Source of the DNA: a virus
Lineage: Duplodnaviria; Heunggongvirae; Uroviricota; Caudoviricetes
Length of the DNA stretch: 47,402 bases
Virus record (IMG/VR): IMGVR_UViG_2531839180_000006
Strand: one strand, 5' to 3'
Shown: positions 1,791 through 45,982 of the stretch, piece after piece
Position numbering within the stretch: the stretch's first letter is position 1
Layout: each line of letters opens with the position of its first letter
Translations under genes and position numbers: made by a program
Notes under the pieces: generated by a model
What the model was told of the DNA's origin: nothing
Seen by the model: the letters and a program-made list of their open reading frames with translations, nothing else
Database searches by the model: none

Positions 1791-3620
1791 TCAATAGCGG
1801 ATTGTCCCTACATCCATTTCTGGCGAATCCACTAACCAGAAATTATCTGGCTTTACAGCCAGAATGATCCAGGCAGTGTTTGTTGTTGATGACCAGGAAG
1901 GCAGCACATCGTATGCCGGGTCATCGCAAGAATCACGATAACCGTACTCATTAAAAAGTGGAGCCATTGCTGCCACAAGATTCACCGCATTCAGCTCATT
2001 ACCCAGCTTGCGCTCAAAAAGTGCCACACCTGCCGTTCCTTCCACCCACACGCCACGGCTGTGACCACTATAACCATAATCAGGGTGGTACGGTGTGTAA
2101 CCCGTGGTTTCCCTCGTACCAAATAAAAAACGCCCCATATATTTTCGGCACTTAGCCGCTTTCTCAGCATCAATATTGGCAACAAACAATCCGCCCCAGG
2201 AAGACTGATCCAGCGCCGCTGCGTTGTCATAGTGGGTTGAATGAACCCCCTGTCGAAATCGGCCTTCATCTTCCACCCACAGACCTCTGATGATGCTCTT
2301 TGCCAGCCTGTCAGCCCGCTCACTGAAACCGTCAAATCCCAGCCGTCCCATCAGTTCAAACAAAAACCAGATATCAACGTTATGCTCCAGTGCGCACCAT
2401 TCGGCGACAAAAGTTTCATCAAAATTGCCGTCCACATAACGCCCCTGCCCCCCTTTATACAGGCCTTCACGCAGGTCGCCTGGTGTGCTCACCAGAAAAG
2501 TATCCAGCCAGGCAATGCCTGCCAATAGCTTTTCTCTGACCCGCGCAGTCTGAGTACCGTCCGGATACTTCTCCAGATAGAAAGCAAGAGCATAATAAAC
2601 CCATGCCGCATTGCCCAAGCGGTAATAGGTACGCGGTGACATGGCAGACAGCCTGTTAACAAAAAACTTTACTCCACCGTTTTCATCAACAAGCGCACAC
2701 AAGCCCGCAACGTATCTTTCTACAGCCTCATGTCGCTGAACCATCAACGCCAGTGCTGCCAGCGCCTGGTCATACGTGTAACACCGATCTTTCATCACCC
2801 TGATCACTTCGGGGTCTGCGTCCTCCGGCATCCAGTAGCTACGAATGAGCAGTGGAAACTCCAGCGTTGTGATCCACGCATTATCCTCAATCCGAATAAG
2901 ACGAAACTGTTTTGCTCCCGTCCAGCAACGTCTGAAATAGAAAGTTCCGTCACTATTCAAATTAGCGTCGCCGTTAAAATACTCTCCGGTTGTATAAGCA
3001 TACATATCGACTTTATACTTTTCAGGTTCAGGAATATCGCAATATCCGTTAACTGCACCGACATAATTAAAATCGATATTTTCTTTTATTTTTAAAGATA
3101 TTGATGTATTAACAACCTCGGGTTGTTCCAGTTTTAACATTGCAGTAGTGCAACGACTCACGATGTCGTCAAAGTTCTCAAAGCGCAAACCGGGAAAACT
3201 ATCGGCTATTCCCTGCATTTCAGACAGTAACGCTTCTGCCCTTTTTGTCGCTGATATTGCCACATCTGCACTTCGTTGCGCCTGACTTGTCAAATCTTCA
3301 AATCGTTTCACCACATCTGGCTTCAGGTCGCCTTCGTCGGGGGCAGTCAGAAAATCATTCAGCGTACCTGGTCTGGAACCTTCATAAACGGTAATGGTCC
3401 CGGCATGTGAAGGCGGAAAACCTTCAACCAACAGGGTGACGCTGTACTGACCATACTCAACATCCATGCTGTAACGTCCAGCTTCATCCGGATTTTCTGA
3501 GGCCACCGTGTTCACCACAACCGTTGTGCTGTTACGTTTTGCCTTCAGTTGAATAGTGCAGTTCTGTATTGGTTTTCCCGCACCATCTTTCAGCACACCT
3601 GAGATTTTTACTGCTGCCAT
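1791..3620 (-). CDS. stf: Side tail fiber protein: lambda Stf-like N-terminal anchor (~90 aa) fused to a large non-lambda C-terminal domain
   Basis: N-terminus 'MAAVKISGVLKDGAGKPIQNCTIQLKAKRNSTTVVVNTV...GTLNDFL' matches lambda Stf N-terminus; the remainder lacks lambda Stf Ala/Ser-rich repeats. Confidence 0.8.
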   Translation of the reverse strand: MAAVKISGVLKDGAGKPIQNCTIQLKAKRNSTTVVVNTVASENPDEAGRYSMDVEYGQYSVTLLVEGFPPSHAGTITVYEGSRPGTLNDFLTAPDEGDLKPDVVKRFEDLTSQAQRSADVAISATKRAEALLSEMQGIADSFPGLRFENFDDIVSRCTTAMLKLEQPEVVNTSISLKIKENIDFNYVGAVNGYCDIPEPEKYKVDMYAYTTGEYFNGDANLNSDGTFYFRRCWTGAKQFRLIRIEDNAWITTLEFPLLIRSYWMPEDADPEVIRVMKDRCYTYDQALAALALMVQRHEAVERYVAGLCALVDENGGVKFFVNRLSAMSPRTYYRLGNAAWVYYALAFYLEKYPDGTQTARVREKLLAGIAWLDTFLVSTPGDLREGLYKGGQGRYVDGNFDETFVAEWCALEHNVDIWFLFELMGRLGFDGFSERADRLAKSIIRGLWVEDEGRFRQGVHSTHYDNAAALDQSSWGGLFVANIDAEKAAKCRKYMGRFLFGTRETTGYTPYHPDYGYSGHSRGVWVEGTAGVALFERKLGNELNAVNLVAAMAPLFNEYGYRDSCDDPAYDVLPSWSSTTNTAWIILAVKPDNFWLVDSPEMDVGTIRY

Positions 3621-10142: not shown

Positions 10143-12712
10143 CGTCCACCTCCGGAGAACAGACCACCATCGCGCATCTGTGCCTGAATTTCATCACGGG
10201 CACCCTTGCGGGCCATGTCATACACTGCCTTCATCATCTGTGGACCTGGCAGACCATTCGTACCGTCGTTCTGAATCACCACGTGATTGTTCTGATTAAA
10301 ATTAATGCCTTCAGCCCGCCGCATCTGCGCCGGACTTCCGGCACCGCCCACATAACCACCTTCCGCATAGCCCCGCATCAGGCGGTACAGGTTGCCGACA
10401 CCAATTCGGCTGGTTGCCTCCTTCGTGAAGACAAATTCACCACGGTGAACAATCCCCGCTGGCTCATATTTGCCGCCGGTTCCCGTAAATCCTCCGGTTG
10501 CAAAATGGAATTTCGCCGCAGCGGCCTGAATGGCTGTACCGCCTGATGCGGATGCGCCGCCACCAACAGCCCCGCCAATGGCGCTACCGATACTCCCGAC
10601 AATCCCCACCATTGCCTGCTTAAGCAGAATTTCTGTCATCATGGACAGCACGGAACGGGTGAAGCTGCGCCAGTTCTGCTCACTGCCGGTCAGCATCGCC
10701 GCCATATTCTGTGCAATACCGTCAAAGGTCTGCGTGGCCACGCTTTTAACCTGCGAAAAACTGTCCGTCGCACTTTCCGCCCACTCGCCCCAGCCGGACT
10801 TCATCCCGGCCATCCAGCTTCCACGAAGCTGCTCCTCCGCAGACCAGGTGTTCTTCAGTGCAGATGTGGCCTTCGCCAGCGCAGCCGGATTATCACCGTA
10901 CACCTCACGAAGGCGCTGCTCTTCCGACTCCCGCTGCGCCTGACGGTCGGTGAGTCCGCGGGCTTTTGCGCTGATTGCCGCCTGCTTCGCGCTCTGCTGC
11001 TGTTCAAACCGCGCCGCCTGCTGTGCCAGCTCATTCAGCCGTTTCTGGTGTTCAATCTTGTCGCCCAGCTCAGCCAGCTGGCGTTTGTACTCCAGCGTCT
11101 CTTTCTCATGAGCCAGCAGGGATTTTTCCTGCTCAGATAACTGCCGTTTCGTGGCGGCCTCTTTCAGGACCACATACTGATTTTCCGCTTTCCATAAATC
11201 ACGGCGCTGCTGGCTGATTTTTTCATTCGCACCGCTGTGCTTCTCCAGCGTCCTGAGCTCAGTTTCAAGCGCCAGCAGGGCTGCATGCGCCTGGTCTTCC
11301 TGGCGCTCACCGGCAGACACCTTCACACCGGACGGCTTTTTCTGCGTCGACTCATAATCCTTTTTTGCCGACGCCATCAGCGTGTTGTAATCCGCCTGCA
11401 GGATTTTCCCGTCTTTCAGGGCCTTATTCAGCTCTTCCTGCCGGGCGGTATATTTCTCCAGTGGCGTCAGCAGGCGCTCATACGCCTTCTGCGCCTCTCC
11501 GGTATACTTCAGCTGTGACGACTCACGCTCAGCCCTGTCCCTTGCCGCCAGTTCACCGGCTTTTTCCATATCCGACTGCAGCGTTGCCGCTGCCAGACCC
11601 AGACGGGCATTTTCCCGGTCATCCCATGCTCCCTGAAGGTTGGCCCGGAAAGAGGAGGTTTTACCGCGGCGCTGGCTCCGACTCTGGTACCACTGCCATT
11701 TTTTATCCGCCTCATCAAATGCCTTCTGCGCACTGGCGAGCATATCCGCAGAAGATTCCGGACGACCGATATCCAGGATGGCATCCCACATCGATTTGAA
11801 CGCCTTCCCTGTTTTATCCGCCCAGGTCTCCAGCGTCCCCATGTTTTCTTTCAGGCGACGGGTCTGCTCATCAAAGCCTTTCGTGGCAATATCGTTCGCC
11901 GCCTGCAATGCCCCGGCCTCATCACCGGAACGCTGTAACTGTGCAACATACGCAATCTGCTCTGCCGTCACGTTATGGAACTGCTTCGCCATCGCAATCA
12001 GCCCCGACGTCGGGTCAGTGGTCAGTTTTCCGAAAGCCTCTGCAACCTTGTCCACCTCCACGCCGGATGCAGAAGCAAAACGCGCGACACTCTGGTTGAT
12101 GGCATCAAACTGTTCACCACCACGCACACCGGCATTCACCATGGCTGCCAGTGACTCACTCGCCTGGTTAAACGTCAGCCCTGCGGCCTGTCCGGCTCTG
12201 GAGAGCGTCAGCATGCGATCGGCAGTCAGTCCGGACTGATTACCGGAAAGAACCAGGGTTTTATTAAACGCAGAAAGCGTGGAATCCCCCTGGTACCAGG
12301 CGTACGCTAGCGCACCTGTCGCCACCGCCAGCGAGGTGACCCCGACCATCGGCAGGGTGATCGCACCGGCAAGCCCCCTGAACATGGGGATCATCCCGCC
12401 GAAGGAGTCCTTCACCTGACCGCCCTGTTGCAGCAGGATCAGCCAGGGATTCTGACCACCGGCAAGCTGCGTGGCCACGTCGGTGAACTGCATGGGTAGC
12501 GTACGCATGGCCTGTTTATACTGCCCGACGGAAATCCCGGCTTTTTGTGCAGCCAGCGCCTGGCGGCTCAGCCCCTGCTCAACGACAGTTGCGGTTTTTC
12601 TGGCGTCAGTATCCAGACCTGAAAAATGACGCCTTACCCGGCTCATCTGCTCATCGAAACGGACCGCATCCAGACTCAGGTCAATAACAAGATCACCAAC
12701 CGGCTGGGACAT
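10139..12712 (-). CDS. H: Tail tape measure protein H
   Basis: 857 aa coiled-coil-rich protein with lambda H-like N- and C-termini ('...MRDGGLFSGGGR'). Confidence 0.95.
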   Translation of the reverse strand: MSQPVGDLVIDLSLDAVRFDEQMSRVRRHFSGLDTDARKTATVVEQGLSRQALAAQKAGISVGQYKQAMRTLPMQFTDVATQLAGGQNPWLILLQQGGQVKDSFGGMIPMFRGLAGAITLPMVGVTSLAVATGALAYAWYQGDSTLSAFNKTLVLSGNQSGLTADRMLTLSRAGQAAGLTFNQASESLAAMVNAGVRGGEQFDAINQSVARFASASGVEVDKVAEAFGKLTTDPTSGLIAMAKQFHNVTAEQIAYVAQLQRSGDEAGALQAANDIATKGFDEQTRRLKENMGTLETWADKTGKAFKSMWDAILDIGRPESSADMLASAQKAFDEADKKWQWYQSRSQRRGKTSSFRANLQGAWDDRENARLGLAAATLQSDMEKAGELAARDRAERESSQLKYTGEAQKAYERLLTPLEKYTARQEELNKALKDGKILQADYNTLMASAKKDYESTQKKPSGVKVSAGERQEDQAHAALLALETELRTLEKHSGANEKISQQRRDLWKAENQYVVLKEAATKRQLSEQEKSLLAHEKETLEYKRQLAELGDKIEHQKRLNELAQQAARFEQQQSAKQAAISAKARGLTDRQAQRESEEQRLREVYGDNPAALAKATSALKNTWSAEEQLRGSWMAGMKSGWGEWAESATDSFSQVKSVATQTFDGIAQNMAAMLTGSEQNWRSFTRSVLSMMTEILLKQAMVGIVGSIGSAIGGAVGGGASASGGTAIQAAAAKFHFATGGFTGTGGKYEPAGIVHRGEFVFTKEATSRIGVGNLYRLMRGYAEGGYVGGAGSPAQMRRAEGINFNQNNHVVIQNDGTNGLPGPQMMKAVYDMARKGARDEIQAQMRDGGLFSGGGR

Positions 12713-25435: not shown

Positions 25436-25969
25436 TTATCTGTAGATACCCCAGCACGCCAGCGCGCTCTCCTGGTCACGACGGGATACCTGACCGTAGC
25501 AGTTGTTTGAACGAATACGGCAGTCTCTGCCACCGTCCTTAATCCACCAGCGAATCGCCTCACACGCTCCCCTGCGATCACCTGCATTAATTCGTTTATA
25601 AAACGTCGACGGGAAACACTTACCGGGACCAATGTTGTACGGACAGAATGACGCGATCCCCGCTTTCTGGGGTTCGCTCAATGGCACTTTGATGTTTTTC
25701 TCCACCCATGCCAGCGCCTTATCACGCTCAATGGCGTTGACCTGGTCGCATTTTTCCTTCGACAGTTTCATACCGGGAAAAACGGGTTTTCCATCCACCA
25801 TCGTGGCCCCCCGACAGATGGTCCAGATGCCGGAACCATCGCGGTATGCCGTTGTGTGGTTACCCTCTTTTTCGTCCAGAAACTGGTCAAGTATCTGAGG
25901 AGCAGACGCGCCTGCAGCAATCAGCGCCAGAACAGCAGCTGACAGGCCGTATTTGATTTTTGCGCTCAT
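25436..25969 (-). CDS. Endolysin: T4-lysozyme-like muramidase with N-terminal signal-anchor-release (SAR) segment
   Basis: 177 aa; N-terminal 'LSAAVLALIAAGASAP' hydrophobic segment; E/D/T triad context ('EGNHTTAYRDGSGIWTICRGAT'); RrrQ/RrrD-like. Confidence 0.85.
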   Translation of the reverse strand: MSAKIKYGLSAAVLALIAAGASAPQILDQFLDEKEGNHTTAYRDGSGIWTICRGATMVDGKPVFPGMKLSKEKCDQVNAIERDKALAWVEKNIKVPLSEPQKAGIASFCPYNIGPGKCFPSTFYKRINAGDRRGACEAIRWWIKDGGRDCRIRSNNCYGQVSRRDQESALACWGIYR

Positions 25970-26343: not shown

Positions 26344-26559
26344 TTACTCTCCCCGTGCAGCCTTACGACGGTCCTCTCTGATTTTGAAATACAGGTTAGT
26401 CAGATATGTCAGCAGCCCAAACAGCAGACTCCCCAGCACGCCTATTGCCGCCCACTGAGACGGGGAAACCCTGTCCAGCAACTGCAGGAACCAGTAGCCC
26501 GTTCCCACCGCTGACGTGGTGTATGACACACCTGTTGTGATTTTTTCCATCTGGTCCAT
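26344..26559 (-). CDS. Class II holin (S21/pinholin-like, EssQ/EssD family) with dual-start motif MDQMEK
   Basis: '[65 protein letters not shown]' matches lambdoid class II holins; two TMDs; GGAG SD. Confidence 0.9.
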
Positions 26560-26866
26560 ACCCCGTCTCCCGTTATCCGGAAGCTGACAACAATAAAAAA
26601 GCCACCAGTTAACTACTGATGGCTCTGATAACTCATGCAAGCGTCTCAGACGACCCACTGGCACTACCGGTGAGTTTAACGATACCTTCCATTTGACTGA
26701 CTCACTTTTTATGATGATGCCGGTGCATTTATCTCCAGCACCAGACTTTCTGTCTCAACGCCATACGTTGCATTTTTGGTAATATCCGTCAGCGTCAGTG
26801 CATTTAGTCCCACTGCCAGACTGTCTTTTATGGCCTGGAATGCCGGGCCAGTACGATGACGTAGTA

Positions 26867-27650: not shown

Positions 27651-27685
27651 GGAGTTTACTCACATCTGACAAAATCAATATAAAC

Positions 27686-27705
27686 AGCCCCTCCGGAGAG
27701 GGGCT
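27686..27705. terminator. Perfect hairpin AGCCCCTC-CGGA-GAGGGGCT downstream of the 111-aa ORF and of the tRNA cluster; possible bidirectional terminator
   Basis: 8-bp perfect GC-rich stem with tetraloop read directly. Confidence 0.4.
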
Positions 27706-27939
27706 GGAGAGTGGCGCTATGTGCCATTGCATGGTGCCGGGTGCCTCCCGGTGAATTCAGTACCAGCACCTGAATCCGCGATTATCCCATATACCTACTC
27801 GCTGATTGCCCCTCCGCACAGGGGGATTCACCATGCCAGTTTCTTTTAACAAACTCCCCGCAAACCAGACAACAGTCAACCGCCTGAATTGTGAGACATT
27901 TAAAAAAAGCCCGCAAAAGCGAGCCAAGGAAAATAAGTG

Positions 27940-28016
27940 TGGCGCGTTGTACTGGATTCGAACCAGTGACCGATTGCTTAGAAGGCAATTGCTCTGTCCG
28001 GCTGAGCTAACAACGC
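27940..28016 (-). tRNA. argO: tRNA-Arg (anticodon UCU), argO-like
   Basis: Minus strand GCGTTGTTAGCTCAGCCGGACAGAGCAATTGCCTTCTAAGCAATCGGTCACTGGTTCGAATCCAGTACAACGCGCCA folds as a canonical cloverleaf (7-bp acceptor, TTCGAAT T-loop, CCA). Confidence 0.85.
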
Positions 28017-28029
28017 AGGATACAGATAA

Positions 28030-28106
28030 TGGACCGCCTTCGGGGACCCGAACTCCGCGCAACCAGCTTCGAAAGCTGGCGCTCTTTCCTGATGAGCTAA
28101 TGGCGG
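28030..28106 (-). tRNA. argN: tRNA-like, probable tRNA-Arg (anticodon UCG by eye), argN-like; non-canonical pairs, possibly degenerate
   Basis: CCGCCATTAGCTCATCAGGAAAGAGCGCCAGCTTTCGAAGCTGGTTGCGCGGAGTTCGGGTCCCCGAAGGCGGTCCA: cloverleaf possible but A-A mismatch in acceptor stem, A-C mismatch in T-stem, G at position 58. Confidence 0.55.
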
Positions 28107-28113
28107 TATGTGA

Positions 28114-28189
28114 TGGTGGCCCTTGCTGGATTTGAACCAGCGACCTGGCGATTATGAGTCGCTCGCTCTCACCACTGAGCTAAAGGGCC
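28114..28189 (-). tRNA. ileZ: tRNA with anticodon CAU (Ile2/lysidine type, ileZ-like; formally Met/Ile)
   Basis: GGCCCTTTAGCTCAGTGGTGAGAGCGAGCGACTCATAATCGCCAGGTCGCTGGTTCAAATCCAGCAAGGGCCACCA; closely resembles E. coli tRNA-Ile2; perfect acceptor stem, TTCAAAT T-loop. Confidence 0.85.
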
Positions 28190-34443: not shown

Positions 34444-34599
34444 TTACTCTCTAGATTCGTAGTCTACGAAAACAGCAACCTCCGTCTGGCCGGTTCGGAT
34501 TCGTACCTCGCAGAGGTCTTTCCTCGTTACCAGTGCCGTCACTATGACGGTTAAACAGATGACGATAAGGGCGATTAACATCGCCTTTTGCTGCTTCAT
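34444..34599 (-). CDS. hok: Hok-family type I toxin (HokD/RelF-like membrane peptide)
   Basis: 'MKQQKAMLIALIVICLTVIVTALVTRKDLCEVRIRTGQTEVAVF' matches Hok/Gef family; AAGGAG SD; in-frame upstream extension (to 34656) may be mok-like. Confidence 0.85.
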   Translation of the reverse strand: MKQQKAMLIALIVICLTVIVTALVTRKDLCEVRIRTGQTEVAVFVDYESRE

Positions 34600-35025
34600 A
34601 GCCTGCTTCTCCTTGCCTTTCGGCACGTAAGAGGCTAACCTACATTTGTGAGACATAGATTGGGCCTCAGATTAATGTTAAGCGTCTTGCAGGACGCGTA
34701 ATGTTAACTGGGGCTTTTCTCTATCTGCCTTTTGGTGTTCATGCCTGAGACAGATAGCCTCAAGCACCCGCAGCAATTCTACTTAACTCTCCTTTTCCCG
34801 CAAACCGTTTTTATCCTCAACGTAAATTTTACCAATATTGCCTAACACATCTCCCTTGCCCTGACGATGCTTACCTCTTTACACAGACCCAAATTTATGT
34901 ATTATCTTTTACAAACAAGCAGTTAAGAGCTATCGGTGGGTGAGTTCGCCCTGCGGTAGCTTTTCCTTTATGCATTGCATCTATTTATGTTCTAGTATAT
35001 TCCTATATGTTCAAAAGGACTTTTC

Positions 35026-39353: not shown

Positions 39354-39876
39354 ACGAACCCCTGGCAGACATTTGTTTATCTGCAAAGTAATATTGATAT
39401 TGCTGACGATACGCATGCTTGAAAGCAATAGCTTTTTCTATAAGCTCGTCAGTCTCACGTTCCACAACAGATGGATCCGCAAAAAGCAGCCCGGACTCCA
39501 CCACATCGCCATATTCTTTGTTTAATCCGGCGATCATGTATGTAATGCTTTTTCCGTCAGTAATTTCACAATACAACCTGAAATCGCTGATCCGGATAGC
39601 CTCCATAATTGCCGGAATCAGCGCCGTGAATTTTTCCCGCTTATCCCTGGTGTCGATAGCTTTCCAGCGTTCGAATATCTTCACCCGGTTAACGCCCAGC
39701 GCCCGTTGATCAACCTCGCCATCATTAAACGTGACGCGTTGAACATCGATGTTCGGGCGTTCTTTCAGAGCCCAGAATGCTTCTGTGATTAATATCGTCG
39801 CCTGCTCTTGTGTCATTCCTGGTCGGCATACCCAGGCATCCAGAGCTTCACAAACCTGTTCAGGGGTGATTTTCAT
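39325..39876 (-). CDS. YdaT-like protein at the cII position
   Basis: 183 aa; 'WKAIDTRDKREKFTALIPAIMEAIRISDFRLYCEITD' resembles Rac YdaT; located between cro-like gene and O. Confidence 0.5.
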   Translation of the reverse strand: MKITPEQVCEALDAWVCRPGMTQEQATILITEAFWALKERPNIDVQRVTFNDGEVDQRALGVNRVKIFERWKAIDTRDKREKFTALIPAIMEAIRISDFRLYCEITDGKSITYMIAGLNKEYGDVVESGLLFADPSVVERETDELIEKAIAFKHAYRQQYQYYFADKQMSARGSYEYRCTTMG

Positions 39877-40087
39877 TGTTCAACCGCCCCGCCCGCTTTG
39901 CCTTACGATATTCGTCATAAACTTTGGGGTCGTACTGAAGTTCCCCGCCGGATGCCTCTTGCAGGCGCATCGCGCGACCTTCAGGAACCAGTTCCCCCCA
40001 TTGAGAAACAGCAGATGGATCAACGCCAGCAGCTTTCGCTACTTTGGCTTTCGTGCCATAAAAATTAATTACGTCTGATTTAAACAT
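39860..40087 (-). CDS. dicC: Cro-like repressor (DicC/YdaS-type HTH)
   Basis: 75 aa; 'GTKAKVAKAAGVDPSAVSQW' HTH; strong SD GGAGGGG; divergent from the DicA-like gene. Confidence 0.75.
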   Translation of the reverse strand: MFKSDVINFYGTKAKVAKAAGVDPSAVSQWGELVPEGRAMRLQEASGGELQYDPKVYDEYRKAKRAGRLNNENHP

Positions 40088-40100
40088 CACCCCTCCAAAG

Positions 40101-40114
40101 TTGAGTTTTCTCAA
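40101..40114. promoter_or_regulatory. Operator-like palindrome TTGAGTTTTCTCAA in the dicA-dicC intergenic region
   Basis: Perfect inverted repeat; same motif recurs downstream of dicA (40634-40646, 40671-40682). Confidence 0.55.
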
Positions 40115-40164
40115 TGGTAATCACTCAAGGAATCTCAAGTCAAGGATTATTAAGATATCTAAAT

Positions 40165-40572
40165 ATGAACGAGAAAACTTTAGGTCAACGAATTAGAGAA
40201 AGACGCAAACAGGTTGGTTTAAGTCAAAACGATTTAAGCAAAGCTGCTGGCGTATCTGGCTCATCAATTTCACTATGGGAAAGCGACCATACAGCCCCGC
40301 GCGGGCAAAATTTGCATCGCCTGGCTGAGGTATTGCAATGCTCACCAACCTGGATACTGTTTGGTGACGAGGATAAAACACCAGATCCCCCAGTTGCACT
40401 TAACAGCGCCTTAGACTTATCGGAAGATGAGTTGGAGATGTTGCGATTGTATCGCGCACTTCCAAAATCAGAGCAGCAAGCACAAATCAGCGAACTCCGT
40501 GCCCGCGTTGAGAATTTTAATCGCCTATTCACCGAGCTACTAGAAGCTCGCAAACGTAACAAACATCAGTAA
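40165..40572 (+). CDS. dicA: Immunity repressor, DicA-like (XRE-family HTH)
   Basis: 135 aa; 'LQCSPTWILFGDEDK' and C-terminal region match E. coli DicA; HTH 'LSQNDLSKAAGVSGSSISLWE'. Confidence 0.85.
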   Translation: MNEKTLGQRIRERRKQVGLSQNDLSKAAGVSGSSISLWESDHTAPRGQNLHRLAEVLQCSPTWILFGDEDKTPDPPVALNSALDLSEDELEMLRLYRALPKSEQQAQISELRARVENFNRLFTELLEARKRNKHQ

Positions 40573-40761: not shown

Positions 40762-40917
40762 ATGGATACTATCGATCTTGGCAACAACGAATCTCTGGTA
40801 TACGGCGTGTTTCCCAACCAGGACGGTACGTTCACCGCGATGACGTATACCAAAAGCAAAACGTTTAAAACCGAAAATGGTGCCCGTCGCTGGCTGGAAA
40901 GAAACTCAGGTGAGTGA
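40762..40917 (+). CDS. ydfA: YdfA-like small protein
   Basis: 51 aa 'MDTIDLGNNESLVYGVFPNQDGTFTAMTYTKSKTFKTENGARRWLERNSGE'; GAGG SD. Confidence 0.8.
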   Translation: MDTIDLGNNESLVYGVFPNQDGTFTAMTYTKSKTFKTENGARRWLERNSGE

Positions 40918-40918
40918 T

Positions 40919-41047
40919 ATGGATTTCGACACAATCATGGAAAAGGCTTACGAAGAATACTTCGAAGGTCTTGCCGAAGGCGAAGAAGCTCTCAGCTTCA
41001 ACGAATTTAAACAGGCGCTTTCCAGTTCGGCAAAATCTAACGGCTGA
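40919..41047 (+). CDS. ydfB: YdfB-like small protein
   Basis: 42-aa ORF 'MDFDTIMEKAYEEYFEGLAEGEEALSFNEFKQALSSSAKSNG' immediately after ydfA. Confidence 0.7.
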   Translation: MDFDTIMEKAYEEYFEGLAEGEEALSFNEFKQALSSSAKSNG

Positions 41048-41076
41048 TAAGCGAAACAGCACCGCGAGGAATCAGT

Positions 41077-41295
41077 ATGCAGAAACGAGAACCCGTCATC
41101 ATCGCGCCAGACTATACCGATGATGAACTTTATGAGTGGATGCACCAGAAAATTAATGCAGCGCAGGATCTGAAATGGGCCAATGAAGCCAGGACTAAGC
41201 AGGCTGAAAATCTGTCCGCTCTGGAGCAGGATATCACTAATCTGGAAAAAGCAGCGGCATTAAGCATTGCCAGAATGATTACATACCCGCGTTAA
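41077..41295 (+). CDS. ydfC: YdfC-like small protein
   Basis: 72-aa ORF following ydfB, as in Qin prophage. Confidence 0.7.
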   Translation: MQKREPVIIAPDYTDDELYEWMHQKINAAQDLKWANEARTKQAENLSALEQDITNLEKAAALSIARMITYPR

Positions 41296-41660
41296 TAGCT
41301 AACCAACGAAGCTAAGGTTGGTAATTAAGGAGTTCTCCACGGGTGAGGTGGAGTGCGTGCGCCGGACACGGGTGAGCATCCGGCACTGACAGTTTACTGA
41401 AAGGATATTTCCCTGAAAAGTCAGACCATAACGCGAAAGCGCACGGCGAGGTAGCTGGTTCATAGATAGCCTGTCGTTAAATTTTCGTCGACCGTGCGCT
41501 TCCGGTTGTGGCAATCCGCGAAATGGCGCGGCGGTAAGTATGGCGGGGTTATTCCTTCCCCCGTTGAGGACACCGGGTTGTCAGGTTGACCATACGCTTA
41601 AGTGACAACCCCGCCATAACTCATACTGCTATAGATATATGGGGTCTAACCGGAGGAAAA

Positions 41661-41882
41661 ATGATAGTTCAATGCACAGACGGGAATAATAAGCTGCTCT
41701 GGTCATACGATACCGTCAGCCAGAAACACATAATGAATATGACTTTTATAAAGGACGGTACTCAACAAAAAATCATTACCGCCCTTGCAAGTGCATTAAC
41801 TCAGGCGACAAGCCAAATTCTGCTATCTGATAACGTTAATGGAGTATCTGATATTGGCTCGATGACCGGGAGGGAGTGCTAA
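41661..41882 (+). CDS. Hypothetical small protein (73 aa)
   Basis: ORF with strong SD GGAGGAAAA; 3' end overlaps a convergent minus-strand ORF. Confidence 0.45.
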   Translation: MIVQCTDGNNKLLWSYDTVSQKHIMNMTFIKDGTQQKIITALASALTQATSQILLSDNVNGVSDIGSMTGREC

Positions 41883-42086
41883 TACAACATTCCAGTAACC
41901 CGAGTGGGGCACGGTAATATTGGCAGGGAATCGTTCATAGAAACCGCCGTAATAGGTAAAACGCCCGCCCCGCTTGAAAGCCTGGTAATTTGAATCATCC
42001 ATTAATAAAACATTAATCTGGTGTGAACATTGAACCCTGACAAGGTCACCATCATTCATGTGTTCACGACTATGTATATGGGACAT
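41823..42086 (-). CDS. Hypothetical small protein (87 aa)
   Basis: ORF with strong SD AAGGAG 5 nt before ATG. Confidence 0.5.
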   Translation of the reverse strand: MSHIHSREHMNDGDLVRVQCSHQINVLLMDDSNYQAFKRGGRFTYYGGFYERFPANITVPHSGYWNVVLALPPGHRANIRYSINVIR

Positions 42087-42603
42087 AAACACTCCTTTTT
42101 ACTGTGGAAAGCTAAATCATATCACGGTCTATGAAGTAAAAAGTGAATTTCGTGATGCGGTGAATGCGGCTCAGCGCACGCAGAACAGTTAAAAACACAA
42201 GTGTTATGGGTGAATCATCCGGCGTTAATTGTTAACTGGTTAACGTCACCTGGAGGCACCAGGCACCGCATCACAAAGTTCACTTAGGTGATGAAAGGTA
42301 GAGAAAATGTTGAATGTAGCTATTGAAAACCAGAACGGGTGGAATTATAGTGCACCTGCACCTCATAAAACGGGTGCCGGGCGTGGAAACCCGATGTTCA
42401 CTAACGCGCATAATCGCGCTCAGGCGGTTTTTTTATGCGTAATGCACAGCCACATTCAGATTATGGTGGGACGTGCAGGGCAGCCGCAAGGCTGGCCGGG
42501 TTCGTTAGTGACCGGTATTTCCACCCCTGTACGTCTCACCACCCTTATGGTCGTGGAAAACCTTGGTGGTGAGTTAATCAAATTCACTAACGAGGCTGCT
42601 ATC

Positions 42604-43158
42604 ATGGCTACTATCCCTACCCTTTCTCAACCTGACGTAACCATCGAAAATGGTCGCGCTGTCACTACGTCTGTTGCGATCGCCGAGTTCTTTGGCAAAC
42701 GCCACGACAATGTTATTCAAAAAATAAAATTACTGGATTGCTCCCCTGAATTCACTGCCCTTAATTTTAAGGTGAGCGAATACACCGACTCAACCGGGCG
42801 CAAACTCCCTATGTACCAAATCACCAAAAACGGCTTCGTTTTCCTGGTGATGGGCTTCACGGGCAAAAAAGCCGCAGCTTTCAAGGAAGCCTACATCGCT
42901 GAATTCGATCGCATGGAGGCAGAGTTGTACCAGCTTAATACCACTACCACAGACAAAATAATTCCTGGTGATGGTCGCACTCTCGTTGTTTACTTCGACG
43001 AACGCGGCAATATCAAATTCACCGAAACCGTTCCTGACGGCGCTCTCGTCTGTACTCTGGATACTTTCCGCTTTTATCTGGAGAAGCAGGGGTGGACTCT
43101 TGTAAACAGGAGCGCAATTAAAAATATGACCGTCGAGCAGTTGCTGAGTATTAAATAG
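42604..43158 (+). CDS. rha: Rha-family phage regulatory protein (start uncertain; ORF extends in-frame to 42307)
   Basis: 'RAVTTSVAIAEFFGKRHDNVIQKI' Rha signature; upstream in-frame extension lacks protein-like composition. Confidence 0.7.
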   Translation: MATIPTLSQPDVTIENGRAVTTSVAIAEFFGKRHDNVIQKIKLLDCSPEFTALNFKVSEYTDSTGRKLPMYQITKNGFVFLVMGFTGKKAAAFKEAYIAEFDRMEAELYQLNTTTTDKIIPGDGRTLVVYFDERGNIKFTETVPDGALVCTLDTFRFYLEKQGWTLVNRSAIKNMTVEQLLSIK

Positions 43159-43204
43159 TTTTCTGGAATTTTCTTAATGCGACAAATTTATTAAGGAGAT
43201 AATT

Positions 43205-43426
43205 ATGATTGCTCATCACTTCGGAACTGATGATATTCCTCGTCAGTGCGTGACTCCCGGTGATTATGTTATTCATAAAGGAAGAACATATATTGCTTCG
43301 GTAAACAATATAAAAAAACACCGGCTCTATATTCGTGATTTTTCCACACAACACTGTATTAATGAAACCATGATTAAAGTCTTCCTTGATCGTGATGGTT
43401 TACCTGTAAAGGCGGAGTCGTGGTGA
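43205..43426 (+). CDS. Hypothetical small protein (73 aa)
   Basis: ORF with strong SD AAGGAG. Confidence 0.5.
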
Positions 43427-43543
43427 GCTGTAATAAAATAACTACCCCAATACGACATTCAGTTTAATAAATACATCAGATTCGATTCTTATATGCCAGC
43501 AATGGCAGTGACTTGTTCACCCCTAAATCTGTAATGAGGTTTA

Positions 43544-45982
43544 TTGATGAGCACGAATAAAGAAGTGTTTGCGCTATATTGCGAAGCTAAAAATGACAAG
43601 GTCAGAAAGCGTCTCGGTATTAAAGGTGGCTTTTTCTGGATCGAAGCCAAAAAACTTTCCGTTGCAGTTTCCCGCTGTATTGCCGCTATGGACGATGCTG
43701 GCTACGACGAAGATGATTTCAAAAAAACAGTTCGCATCCATTTGCCTGTTGTAAATGACCTGCCACCTGAAGGCGTATTTGATACTGATTTCTGTAACCG
43801 TTACGAAAAAGGTGGAGAAGATGGCATCACAATGATGCCGGTACCGTCCAGCAACAGCGATGAAAACAGTAACGCCGCTAATACTAACGTCAACGGCGAA
43901 GACATGATTGAGATTGAGGAGAATATTCTTCTGCCGGTTTCAGGTCAGCTTCTGCCTGTTAGATGGCTGGCACAGCACGGCAGCGAAAAACCTGTCACGC
44001 ATGTTTCACGGGATGAACTGCGGGCATTACATAACGCACAGGAAGAAAAACTTCCCGCCGTTACCGCTCTGGCCATCTCAAATAAAGCAGTGCAACTCGA
44101 ACCGCTGGAGATTCGGGATTTGTACAAACTGGTGCGGGACACTGACAAAGTTTTTCCCGCCCCCGTAAATTCAGACCTGGGACTGATGACTTCCTTCATC
44201 GAAGCATACCTGGACGCTGACTACACCAATCGCGGTCTGCTTACAAAAGAGTGGATGAAAGGAAATCATGTTTCGCGAATCAGCCGCACACCATCCGGCG
44301 CTAACGCTGGCGGCGGTATTCTTACCGATCGCGGCGAAGGTTTTGTACACGATGATGCATCACTGGCGCGCGACGTAGCCACTGGCGTGCTGGCCCGTTC
44401 AATGGACGTGGACATTTATAACCTTCATCCGGCACACGCTAAACGCGTCGAGGAAATTATCGCTGAAAATAAACCGCCCTTTTCTGTTTTCTTCAGCAAA
44501 TTCATCACCATGCCGGGCCACAAGGATTTCTCCCGTGCCATCGTGGTTGCCTCCGTGAAAGAAGCACCAGTTGGTATAGAGGCTATGCCCCACCGTGTCA
44601 CCGAATACCTGAATAAAGTGCTGACTGAAACCGATCATGCCAACCCTGATCCGGAAATCGTGGATATTGCCTGCGGTCGCTCCTCTGCCCCGATGCCGCA
44701 GCGTGTAACTGAAAAAGAAAAACATGATGAAGAAAAACCGCAACCATCTGGCGCAATGGCAGATGAACAGGCAACGGCTGAAACAGTGGAACCGGATGCA
44801 ACTGAACATCATCCGGACACGCAGCCGGTGGATGCTCAGCCACAGGTGAATTCTGTTGATGCGAAATATCAGAAACTGCGGGCAGAACTCCATGAAGCCA
44901 GGAAAAACATTTCGCCTAAAAATCCTGTCGACGCAAACAAATTACTGGCAGCCTCTCGCGGAGAATTTGTTGAAGGGATTAGTGACCCGAATGATCCGAA
45001 ATGGGTTAAGGGGCTCCAGACTCGCGAGTCTTCGAACCAGAATCAACCAGAAGTGGAACAAACCAAGCCAGAATCGGGACAAAATAGCCAGGATGCACAC
45101 CAAAATGAACCAAAAACGATACATCCGGAGCCAGCAGCGCAACATGCACAGAAAAATCCCTGTAATGTTTGTGGGGAAACTGGCGGGGGCACATGCCCTG
45201 ACTGTGCCTCAGTAATGGGTGACGCAACTTACCATGAGACATTCTGCGAGGAAGATTCAGATGAATCTCAGGAAAAAGCTCCGGAGGAGATGGAAAACCC
45301 TGAACATCCGCATCCGGAAAATACTGACAGCAATCAGCATAACAATAGCGGTGATAAAACTGACAGGACGACAAATTCCTTAATTAATATGCACGGTCAT
45401 CAGAAAAGAACATCCACCAGCAGAATGTGTCACCATCTGATGATCGACCTTGAAACAATGGGAAAAAATCCTGATTCCCCGATTATCTCAATAGGTGCAA
45501 TATTTTTCGATCCGCAAACCGGAGAGATGGGACCAGAATTTAATAAAACCATCGATCTGGAAACTGCTGGCGGAGTCATTGATCGGGACGCGATCAAGTG
45601 GTGGCTGAAGCAATCACGCGAAGCGCAATCTGCCATTCTGACCGATGAAATCCCGTTAGATGATGCACTGCTGCAATTGCGGGAATTTATCGCCGAAAAC
45701 TCCGGTGAATTGTTTGTTCAGGTCTGGGGAAATGGAGCCAACTTCGACAACGTGATTTTGCGCCGTTCATATGAACGGCAGGGTATCCCCTGCCCGTGGC
45801 GCTACTACAACGATCGCGATGTACGCACAATCATTGAACTGGGAAAATCCATAGACTTCGATGCCAGGACGCCTATTCAATTCGAAGACATACGCCACAA
45901 TGCGCTGGATGATGCCCGTCACCAGGCGAAATACGTTTCAGCAATCTGGCAAAAACTGATCCCGAATCAGTCTGATTTTTAA
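43544..45982 (+). CDS. RecE-like exonuclease VIII family protein with Zn-ribbon and C-terminal DEDDh (DnaQ-like) 3'-5' exonuclease domain
   Basis: N-terminal ~570 aa resembles E. coli RecE N-terminal region; '[15 protein letters not shown]'; C-terminal Exo I-III motifs 'MIDLETMG', 'VWGNGANFD', 'HNALDDARH'. Confidence 0.75.

Follow-up and report, generated by a model that had tools for sequence, protein, structure and literature searches.

Two toxin genes of cryptic prophages, dicB and kilR, are the best-studied toxins of this kind in Escherichia coli K-12, and their leaky expression decides cell survival under loss of Rho or NusG, under oxidative stress and with some antibiotics. Their operons, dicB in Qin and kil in Rac, also carry the small RNAs (sRNAs) DicF and KilS, which are Hfq-dependent, act by base pairing and end at an intrinsic terminator; kilS (b4833) is a northern-validated Hfq-associated sRNA. 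Another group of Hfq-binding prophage sRNAs, STnc100 (the same as EcOnc27/sRNA103) and PasD1/PasD2, is known from Salmonella and pathogenic E. coli. Here we describe an RNA element that is related to STnc100 and PasD in its fold and is a neighbour of DicF and KilS in its place. It was found at positions 42141-42285 of a 47,402-nucleotide (nt) stretch of DNA from a virus of the class Caudoviricetes (IMG/VR record IMGVR_UViG_2531839180_000006), which was analysed as a whole and is referred to as the window.

Two further systems are close enough to be compared. The RNase III leader stems of lambda N leader, sib, rnc and pnp are simple hairpins, in which a long near-perfect helix lies upstream of the regulated gene. 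The put RNAs of phage HK022 act in cis and belong to early operons of lambdoid phages without N; they measure about 70 nt, consist of two stem-loops just past the early promoter, and make RNA polymerase terminator-resistant through its beta' zinc-binding domain. The present element likewise has a long near-perfect helix upstream of a gene, but what this helix closes is a conserved core with a pseudoknot, and the core is also found where the long helix is missing. In the case of DicF and KilS, which are the immediate upstream neighbours of the element in Qin and Rac, no similarity of sequence or structure is seen. The element would be a second processed RNA module of the dicB/kil operon beside these sRNAs. 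Each of the two toxin genes is separated from its companion sRNA by this RNA, which is conserved, pseudoknotted and, as it appears, processed.

A first-pass annotation of the window had reported two near-complementary arms of about 22 base pairs (bp), some 100 bp apart, with two GTTAAC palindromes between them, and both observations hold. A repeat search of the window gave arms at 42141-42162 and 42264-42285, which are 22 nt long, 91% complementary and spaced by 101 nt; the palindromes are found at 42231-42236 and 42239-42244. Paired as RNA, the arms form 20 Watson-Crick pairs out of 22, together with one U-G pair (42148/42278) and one C·A mismatch (42151/42275). The repeat is unique: no second one of the same class (22-nt arms, at least 20 matches, gap of at most 200 nt) occurs in the window, and none occurred in 40 first-order-Markov simulations of it. 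A 155-nt RNA of the + strand folds with −63.6 kcal/mol (z = −6.67), and 0 of 200 shuffled sequences fold as well; the − strand RNA folds more weakly, with −54.1 kcal/mol (z = −5.54). From the natures that had been proposed for the repeat, i.e. paired binding sites, a recombination site or a small structured RNA of about 145 nt, the last is borne out by compensatory changes in the helices and by G-U pairs that fit the + strand only. The repeat is the closing helix, P1, of a structured + strand RNA of about 145 nt, which is built from the following parts:

42141..42285, + strand: whole element, a structured RNA domain of the 'kil-leader' clade of the STnc100/PasD fold
42141..42162, + strand: 5' strand of P1; the outer 15 nt are a clade-specific extension, the inner 7 nt (NNNGGUG) are family-wide
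42165-42170 / 42176-42182, + strand: P2 hairpin, UGCGGC with GC-A-CGCA, loop UCAGC
42186-42192 / 42232-42238, + strand: H-type pseudoknot, strand a (CAGUUAA) with strand a'
42208-42212 / 42216-42220, + strand: P3b, a small hairpin of the predicted fold at the end of a variable insert
42221-42228 / 42240-42247, + strand: P4 hairpin, GGCGUUAA with UUAACGUC, loop 42229-42239
42249-42253 / 42259-42263, + strand: P5 hairpin, CCUGG-AGGCA-CCAGG, adjoining the 3' strand of P1 without a spacer
42264..42285, + strand: 3' strand of P1; 42275, at the helix centre, is equivalent to a 3' end mapped by Term-seq in Qin of K-12

The fold was evaluated in two alignments, one of the clade (A2, 53 distinct copies) and one of the superfamily (129 distinct copies, with both types included). 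Standard pairs make up 93.4% of the cells in the clade, compared to 35-40% when the partners are slid against each other, and the covariation of 0.155 (about 0.04 after sliding) was reached in none of 500 shuffles. In the superfamily, whose copies were fitted to the model and whose values are to be read with this caveat, the nested structure is 96.4% paired with both-side changes in 20 of 27 pairs, and covariation amounts to 0.42 against 0.03-0.07 for slid partners. Looking at single helices, P1 comprises 22 pairs in the clade, eight of them with both-side changes and 90.9% of the cells paired, while seven of its eight inner pairs covary across the superfamily. P2 is invariant in the clade, reads CCCC/GGGG in the STnc100-type copies, and has both-side changes in three of six pairs in the superfamily. 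P4 changes on both sides in four of eight pairs in the clade and in all eight in the superfamily. In the case of P5, one pair shows a both-side change in the clade (U-A versus G-C, 42:11), and 99.4% of its cells are paired in the superfamily. P3b is weakly supported, being 73% paired in a region where the clade alignment is unreliable. The first-pass annotation had made its proposal depend on conservation of the repeat in related prophages; the repeat is indeed conserved there, and Klebsiella-type copies retain the long P1 helix with an entirely different sequence (CAGGCUUUGCAAUGC / GCAUUGCAAAGCCUG).

The two strands of the pseudoknot are invariant within the clade, and this part of the fold was therefore tested across the superfamily. 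For 75 distinct P4 loops, the longest run of complementarity between the loop and the segment following P2 had a mean of 6.45 nt. When loops were permuted among the sequences, the mean was 4.84 +/- 0.12 nt, and the observed value was reached in 0 of 1000 permutations. The complementary pairs are themselves varied, e.g. ACUGGAUA/UAUCCAGU, GAGCCACAA/UUGUGGCUU and AGGCCUGA/UCAGGUCU. The fold also accounts for the two palindromes. The first GTTAAC is P4 loop and contributes to pseudoknot strand a', and the second is part of the 3' strand of P4, where it is replaced freely (GTTGCA, GCTGCC, ACTACT) together with its P4 pairing partner. Regarding the strand, G-U pairs make up about 9% of paired cells in the clade alignment, and the proportion of standard pairs falls to 85.8% when the alignment is read from the − strand. 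We therefore consider the functional molecule to be RNA of the + strand, and neither DNA nor a − strand transcript; Rfam and our own model, described next, match the element on the + strand only.

The sole Rfam match of the element at an expectation value (E) of up to 10 is STnc100 (RF02076), at 42155-42277 on the + strand with 33.8 bits and an E of 3e-5; it covers model positions 30-154 only and lies below the gathering score of 47 bits. The match is reciprocal, as a covariance model of the clade core, R1, has exactly two matches in the window. One is the core of the element (42155-42271, 130.8 bits). The other, over the full model length, is the core of a paralogue (27729-27836, 56.3 bits, E of 1.8e-10):

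27676-27865, − strand: full STnc100 sRNA gene with the same core fold and its own terminator (Rfam, 132.4 bits)

In 99 loci of other Enterobacterales, among them Pantoea, Erwinia, Rahnella, Kosakonia, Klebsiella, Enterobacter, Citrobacter and Salmonella, R1 identified 138 copies; the element of the window is intact and has the third-best score among all copies. Both types are prophage-borne and share a core of a 7-bp P1, P2, the pseudoknot, P4 and P5, with the common motifs NNNGGUG-AAU, a P2 hairpin loop UNNGC, P4, and UCACC-NGGAGGCACCNGG-CACCNNN. The STnc100 core recurs helix for helix as closing stem, 5' hairpin, penultimate hairpin and GGAGGCACC hairpin. There are also differences. The element lacks the 3' linker and terminator of STnc100 (model positions 155-206) as well as a promoter of its own, its P2 is GCGG/CGC instead of CCCC/GGGG, and P1 of the kil-leader clade mostly reaches 26-30 pairs if those between the flanking U-tract and A-run are counted, compared to 6-9 pairs for free-standing copies. 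The location differs too, since the element lies in the early-left operon before kil or dicB, whereas STnc-type copies have Q or stx on one side and the lysis genes on the other. Finally, the Rfam consensus structure of STnc100 has no pseudoknot, and one is supported here. Altogether, the element is an operon-embedded variant of the STnc100/PasD fold, in which the closing helix is extended and a pseudoknot is present that the Rfam consensus does not have. What is gained is a structural definition, including the pseudoknot, of the 5' domain of the virulence-associated sRNAs STnc100, PasD and EcOnc27, and a tractable K-12 system in which the role of this domain can be studied.

The free-standing relatives look like genes of their own. 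A −10-like box (TANNNT) is found 3-12 nt before P1 in 61% of them, compared to a background of 11%, and a terminator within 150 nt in 55% (median distance 27 nt), compared to 18.5%. STnc100-type copies are located between Q and genes for an outer-membrane protein, holin and lysozyme, in agreement with what is published on STnc100, EcOnc27 and PasD. In the window, the STnc100 gene directly follows a tRNA-Met/Arg/Arg cluster (27940-28189, − strand) and a terminator-like hairpin, and it is situated upstream of lysis-type genes, i.e. holin- and lysozyme-like open reading frames (ORFs) at 26344-26664 and 25436-25969. The outer-membrane-protein gene beside STnc100-type copies may be lpxR. In Pantoea and relatives, three to five copies of the fold can be arranged in tandem (locus L058, 6401-7017, − strand; L069, 4138-4754, − strand; L065, 3237-3600; L043, 1121-1988, − strand; L102, 221-735). 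Some units of these arrays are 12-20 nt apart with no promoter or terminator between them, and each unit has a different P1, e.g. GCUAUG/CAUAGC or GGAACG/CGUUCC; the array of L058 is upstream of a holin-like gene.

The distribution of the element is wide and its position is strict. It is present in 4642 of 5426 complete E. coli genomes (about 85%), at 10,433 places, with a median of 2 and a maximum of 9 copies per genome. It is annotated in none of the matching genome records inspected, and among the matches listed for E. coli genomes no annotated feature lies under it besides spurious 'DicB' fragments that gene callers produce. In K-12 MG1655, it fills the dicF-dicB spacer of Qin and the kilS-kilR spacer of Rac, with no annotation at either site. 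When the 514-nt gap between the DUF1883 gene and Rha in the window was compared to phage genomes by BLAST, positions 48-193 of the gap, which are exactly the repeat-bounded element, matched Rac-SA53, mEp460, Evi, PPompW, the Shigella phages 75/02 Stx and POCJ13, P7 and D6, whereas positions 253-514 (isrK, C4 RNA and Rha) matched another set of phages. Homology to other phages thus begins and ends at the arms. Every annotated lambdoid record examined has the same co-oriented order, i.e. repressor, small ORFs, element, kil or dicB, ydaE or ydfD, racC and exonuclease VIII, with 12-25 nt from the end of the 3' arm to the start codon of kil or dicB. P7 and D6 have a version with a short stem; it belongs to the ban operon, which is under the control of C1, where tRNA genes precede it and terB/tciA follows at a distance of 40 nt.

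The gene that follows was surveyed in 93 clade copies from phage, viral-contig and genome collections. It starts 32-45 nt past the core and encodes DicB (62 amino acids), KilR (73 amino acids), TerB/TciA or another small protein (a 94-residue cysteine-rich protein, a 40-residue Klebsiella peptide, acidic proteins of 91-96 residues, or small membrane proteins); alternatively, an isrK-C4-Rha cassette follows. On the upstream side, about 77 of 92 copies, as tallied from tail counts, come directly after ...CCGCCC-TTTTT, the intrinsic terminator of a DicF/KilS-type sRNA. As a rule, the domain thus has this terminator on one side and, on the other, the ribosome-binding site of a small toxic gene (kilR, dicB, tciA and others). 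The two sRNAs themselves resemble each other: the 3' half of KilS (GGCGGCAUCAGUUUU...CCGCCCUUUUU; kilS at 1418405-1418502 in Rac of K-12) is similar to DicF of Qin (GGCGGUAUCAGUUUU...GCCGCCCUUUUU), and both abut the element, so that KilS has the look of a paralogue of DicF that occupies the same slot of the operon. Regarding the spurious annotations, in strain E24377A (NC_009801.1, 1423154-1423234; locus L251, 3571-3651) RefSeq/PGAP places a partial 'cell division inhibition protein DicB' pseudogene over the 3' half of the element, and in the record of phage mEp460 dicB is extended into it. Both calls look like artefacts of N-terminally over-extended DicB entries. The 'kilR upstream variants' of a machine-learning paper on O157 were also considered; they concern only positions from −25 onward, and not the element.

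We think it probable, with some reserve, that the element as a whole is an RNA domain of the early-left (dicB/kil) operon whose P1 is cut by RNase III, with an effect on the toxin mRNA. Its RNA would be transcribed on the + strand within this repressor-controlled operon, and transcripts that read through the DicF/KilS terminator would fold the domain. RNase III would then cut the long P1 near its centre. The message downstream would thereby be parted from the sRNA and early RNA upstream, and the core, stable and about 110-135 nt long, would be released. The cleavage could set how much of the toxin mRNA survives or is translated. If this is correct, a concrete and testable layer of post-transcriptional control is gained for the dicB and kilR toxins.

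This proposal is based on the helix and on published K-12 data. RNase III needs a helix of roughly two turns, with 20 bp or more uninterrupted by large internal loops, and P1 offers 22 bp in the window and 22 of 23 pairs in Qin of K-12; across copies, this length is maintained although the sequence varies. Term-seq by Adams et al. 2021 (PMC7815308) lists a 3' end at 1649584 on the + strand, 25 nt before the start of dicB, with 1035 reads in LB medium at an optical density of 0.4 and 753 reads under another condition; it is scored 0.95 ('No') for Rho and 1.2 as an intrinsic terminator. According to our own mapping, P1 of Qin consists of 1649440-1649462 and 1649573-1649595 (22 of 23 pairs), and 1649584 is pair 12 of 23, i.e. 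the exact middle of its 3' strand. Inside a stable helix, neither termination nor exonuclease trimming is expected to stop. Additionally, Gordon et al. 2017 (PMC5371410) report position 1649470, inside the Qin core, with 26 reads in an rnc deletion and 0 in the wild type. K-12 thus transcribes the Qin element, whose P1 appears to be cut at its centre. Both tables contain the end in the pnp leader (3311287 in the Term-seq table, 3311286 in the rnc-deletion table), and the 3' end in the rnc leader, 2704184, is found in the Term-seq table only. These ends in the pnp and rnc leaders are at known RNase III sites. With moderate confidence, we infer that RNase III is the cutting enzyme and that expression is affected. 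Folds of the whole K-12 leaders were inconsistent, as GAGG of dicB was paired and GGAG of kilR mostly free; therefore we make no claim of translational occlusion. The known RNase III site of the dicBF operon was considered as a candidate for the P1 helix and dismissed, because the mapped site is upstream of DicF. In their study of RNase III targets, Altuvia et al. 2018 do not mention the dicF-dicB spacer in the main text.

Several points weigh against processing by RNase III as the full account. The link to this enzyme comes from two genome-wide K-12 data sets with modest read counts and from our own mapping, and the Rac copy has no listed 3' end in the K-12 Term-seq table. A plain long hairpin would be enough for RNase III, so that processing leaves the conservation of the core and its pseudoknot unexplained; the same is true of the free-standing relatives, which keep the core with a P1 of 6-9 bp. 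In the window, the C·A mismatch falls at the pair equivalent to the Qin 3' end (pair 12) and may alter the processing of this copy. The element also no longer adjoins kilR here, as an inserted cassette with its own promoter lies between them, and the window copy may do little. No promoter-like site was found directly before 42141 on the + strand, and the sole + strand terminator nearby is that of isrK. Transcription would have to come from a dicB-type promoter about 1.5 kb upstream and to pass through the convergent DUF1883 gene.

The conservation of the core leads to a reading that overlaps with RNase III processing, in which the core, once excised, would be the actual product. Like DicF, it would be a stable RNA that acts in trans, and by binding a conserved protein or RNA it would serve as decoy, sponge or cofactor. 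We regard this as possible and put it forward tentatively. The core sequence and pseudoknot are conserved far beyond the needs of a processing site, the relatives are free-standing genes in which −10-like box and terminator are enriched over background, and a discrete 3' end accumulates in K-12; the tandem arrays, with a P1 that differs from unit to unit, suggest that the dosage of an autonomous unit matters. However, no partner of the core is known, the dicF-dicB spacer has no entry among the Hfq candidates from sequencing of ligated interacting RNAs (RIL-seq) of Bar et al. 2021, and the strict position 12-25 nt before the start of a toxic gene points to a role in cis. Going further, the core might be a new autonomous RNA module with a specific partner (for instance a protein or small ligand, the ribosome, RNA polymerase or an enzyme that handles tRNA) that gates what lies downstream as sensor or effector. 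This idea is rather doubtful in our view. If true, it would unite three formats, i.e. the 5' domain of Hfq sRNAs, tandem arrays, and a leader excised by RNase III before host-killing genes, and the core would be a sensor or effector, and not a passive stem, that has gone unrecognised in the dicBF and kilR loci of K-12.

Four readings of other kinds were weighed and found less convincing. A nascent-RNA element that modifies RNA polymerase or blocks Rho, as put does, could aid early-left transcription to kil, recE and beyond in prophages without N. Put RNAs are a precedent for such cis-acting RNAs in lambdoid phages, the element occurs in long phage operons (early-left, ban of P7, late regions between Q and lysis genes), and expression of kilR in K-12 is held down by NusG and Rho. 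Yet the element, with 110-145 nt, four helices and a pseudoknot, does not have the size, the two stem-loops or the promoter-proximal position of put; its distance from the promoter is about 1.5-2 kb, and the DicF/KilS terminator precedes it instead of following it. The Qin 3' end shows no Rho dependence, and the terminator that free-standing relatives have at a median of 27 nt is the opposite of what an antiterminator would lead one to expect, which makes this explanation improbable. We find it just as hard to believe that the RNA is a tRNA-shaped mimic serving tRNA-processing or -targeting proteins (RNase P, anticodon nucleases) as processing signal or decoy. The topology is tRNA-like, with a 7-bp P1, two unpaired nucleotides, a hairpin, a body, one nucleotide and a 5-bp hairpin abutting the 3' strand of P1; the element is often found beside phage tRNA genes in the same orientation, its back-to-back arrays resemble tRNA operons, and C4 RNA is an RNase P substrate. 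But ARAGORN found nothing at the element and only three true tRNAs in the window, the tRNA and tmRNA models of Rfam gave no match to it at an E of up to 10, the P5 loop has 5 nt and is not a 7-nt T-loop, there is no conserved CCA, and the extended P1 of the clade would block RNase P. A feature of the DNA, be it an operator pair (GTTAAC motifs or arms) for DicA, Rha or another protein, a recombination site or a cruciform, deserves hardly any credence, although it had been suggested by the long, nearly perfect inverted repeat, by the palindromes and by their place between divergent genes, in a gap with a regulatory look. The changes are compensatory for RNA pairing, and the G-U cells would be mismatches on the other strand or in a DNA cruciform. 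Paired binding sites are at odds with the variable second GTTAAC and with the first being the loop half of the pseudoknot, as are arms unrelated in sequence in Klebsiella-type copies and the presence of the element with different repressors and in P1-like plasmid prophages. Recombination does not fit copies that keep one fixed context, i.e. the early-left operon before kil/dicB-type genes or the ban operon of P7 and D6. Very improbable, too, is a selfish repeat resembling a miniature inverted-repeat transposable element (MITE), or a − strand RNA acting as 5' untranslated region of the DUF1883 gene. Terminal inverted repeats and thousands of genomic places would be in line with the former, and a − strand that folds well upstream of the start of DUF1883 at 42092 with the latter. 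Nevertheless, the MITE-like distribution that the first-pass annotation had thought worth checking was not seen, as the window holds one such repeat, the median is 2 copies per genome, and all copies examined share one operon slot and one orientation; no search for target-site duplications was made. The + strand pairs better and is the only one that the models match, and the − strand neighbour varies by locus (sieB, rac10, hypothetical genes or none).

The region of the window that surrounds the element is the early region of a Rac/Qin-type prophage, into which a cassette has been inserted:

39860-40114, − strand: DicC-like gene
40114-40572, + strand: DicA-like repressor gene (HTH_3)
running to 41295: ydfA/B/C-like ORFs
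41823-42092, − strand: DUF1883 gene
42286..43194, + strand: inserted immI-like cassette with promoter, isrK, C4 RNA and Rha/antirepressor gene
42323-42351, + strand: promoter TTGAAA-17-TATAGT, the best σ70-like site in the right half of the gap, just before isrK
42358-42434, + strand: isrK (Rfam, 62 bits)
42459-42546, + strand: C4 antisense RNA (Rfam, 80 bits)
~42604-43158, + strand: Rha/antirepressor gene
43205-43426, + strand: kilR, whose translation matches annotated KilR proteins; the element is normally about 19 nt upstream of it
43544-45982: ORF of 812 amino acids in the slot of the exonuclease VIII gene of related prophages

The element lies in the left half of the 514-nt gap, and isrK and C4 RNA lie in the right half. 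Collinearity with phage Evi extends to 42282 and resumes at 43195, with the Shine-Dalgarno sequence and start of kil; therefore, a cassette of about 910 bp with its own promoter replaces about 11 nt. At least eight other loci have the same junction sequence. The window lacks the DicF/KilS module upstream of the element. Direct downstream neighbour of the element is thus a unit like immI of P1/P7 (with the C4 antisense RNA) and isrK-anrP of Gifsy-1, which is likewise a processed, stem-closed phage RNA. The point at which homology to other phages breaks, however, falls exactly between the two, and the majority of the copies of the element have no C4 cassette and lie directly before kil or dicB. 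The element is not part of the C4/isrK antirepressor unit and constitutes a separate module.

The gene of the cassette requires a correction of its start. The Pfam Rha domain begins at residue 120 of a long 'Rha' ORF with its ATG at 42307, which puts the real start of Rha at about 42604 and leaves the extension as translated isrK and C4 RNA. The doubts that had been raised about this N-terminal extension were justified, since it overlies the two RNA genes; that the inverted repeat lies within it was a mistake, as the element ends at 42285, upstream of the ATG. Residues 14-109 of the ORF (within 42307-42603) match PF10554, the 'Ash protein family', with 64 bits, and several phage records carry an 'ash family protein' over the C4 region. 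The Ash family may thus be largely translated non-coding RNA, and Rha probably starts at 42604. The target repeats of C4 are intact: GGGCGUGGAAACCC (42379-92) and GGUCGUGGAAAACC (42549-62) are complementary to C4 at 42516-27, and the C4 loop at 42502-11 has its complement in UUCACUAACG, which occurs twice (42397-406 and 42583-92), the second copy lying beside the Shine-Dalgarno sequence of Rha. The regions concerned are 42337-42406, 42502-42527 and 42549-42593. In the isrK-C4-Rha cassette, an antirepressor switch like immI of P1 is fused to an isrK of the Gifsy-1 type.

Some observations concern the prophage as a whole. A sok antitoxin RNA at 34594-34769 on the − strand (120 bits) implies a type I toxin-antitoxin locus of the hok/sok type. 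No identical match over 41300-43500 was found among the complete genomes of the collection. E24377A matches the window up to 43145; past this point it carries dicB and a DUF1482 gene, and the window carries kilR. The two also differ at 40913-41356 of the window (2237-2730 of the E24377A locus), with flanks that are 98% identical; in this stretch, E24377A has a gene for GhoS, a type V antitoxin, on the opposite strand, and the window has the ydfB/ydfC-like ORFs. These differences show a mosaic exchange of small modules around the element.

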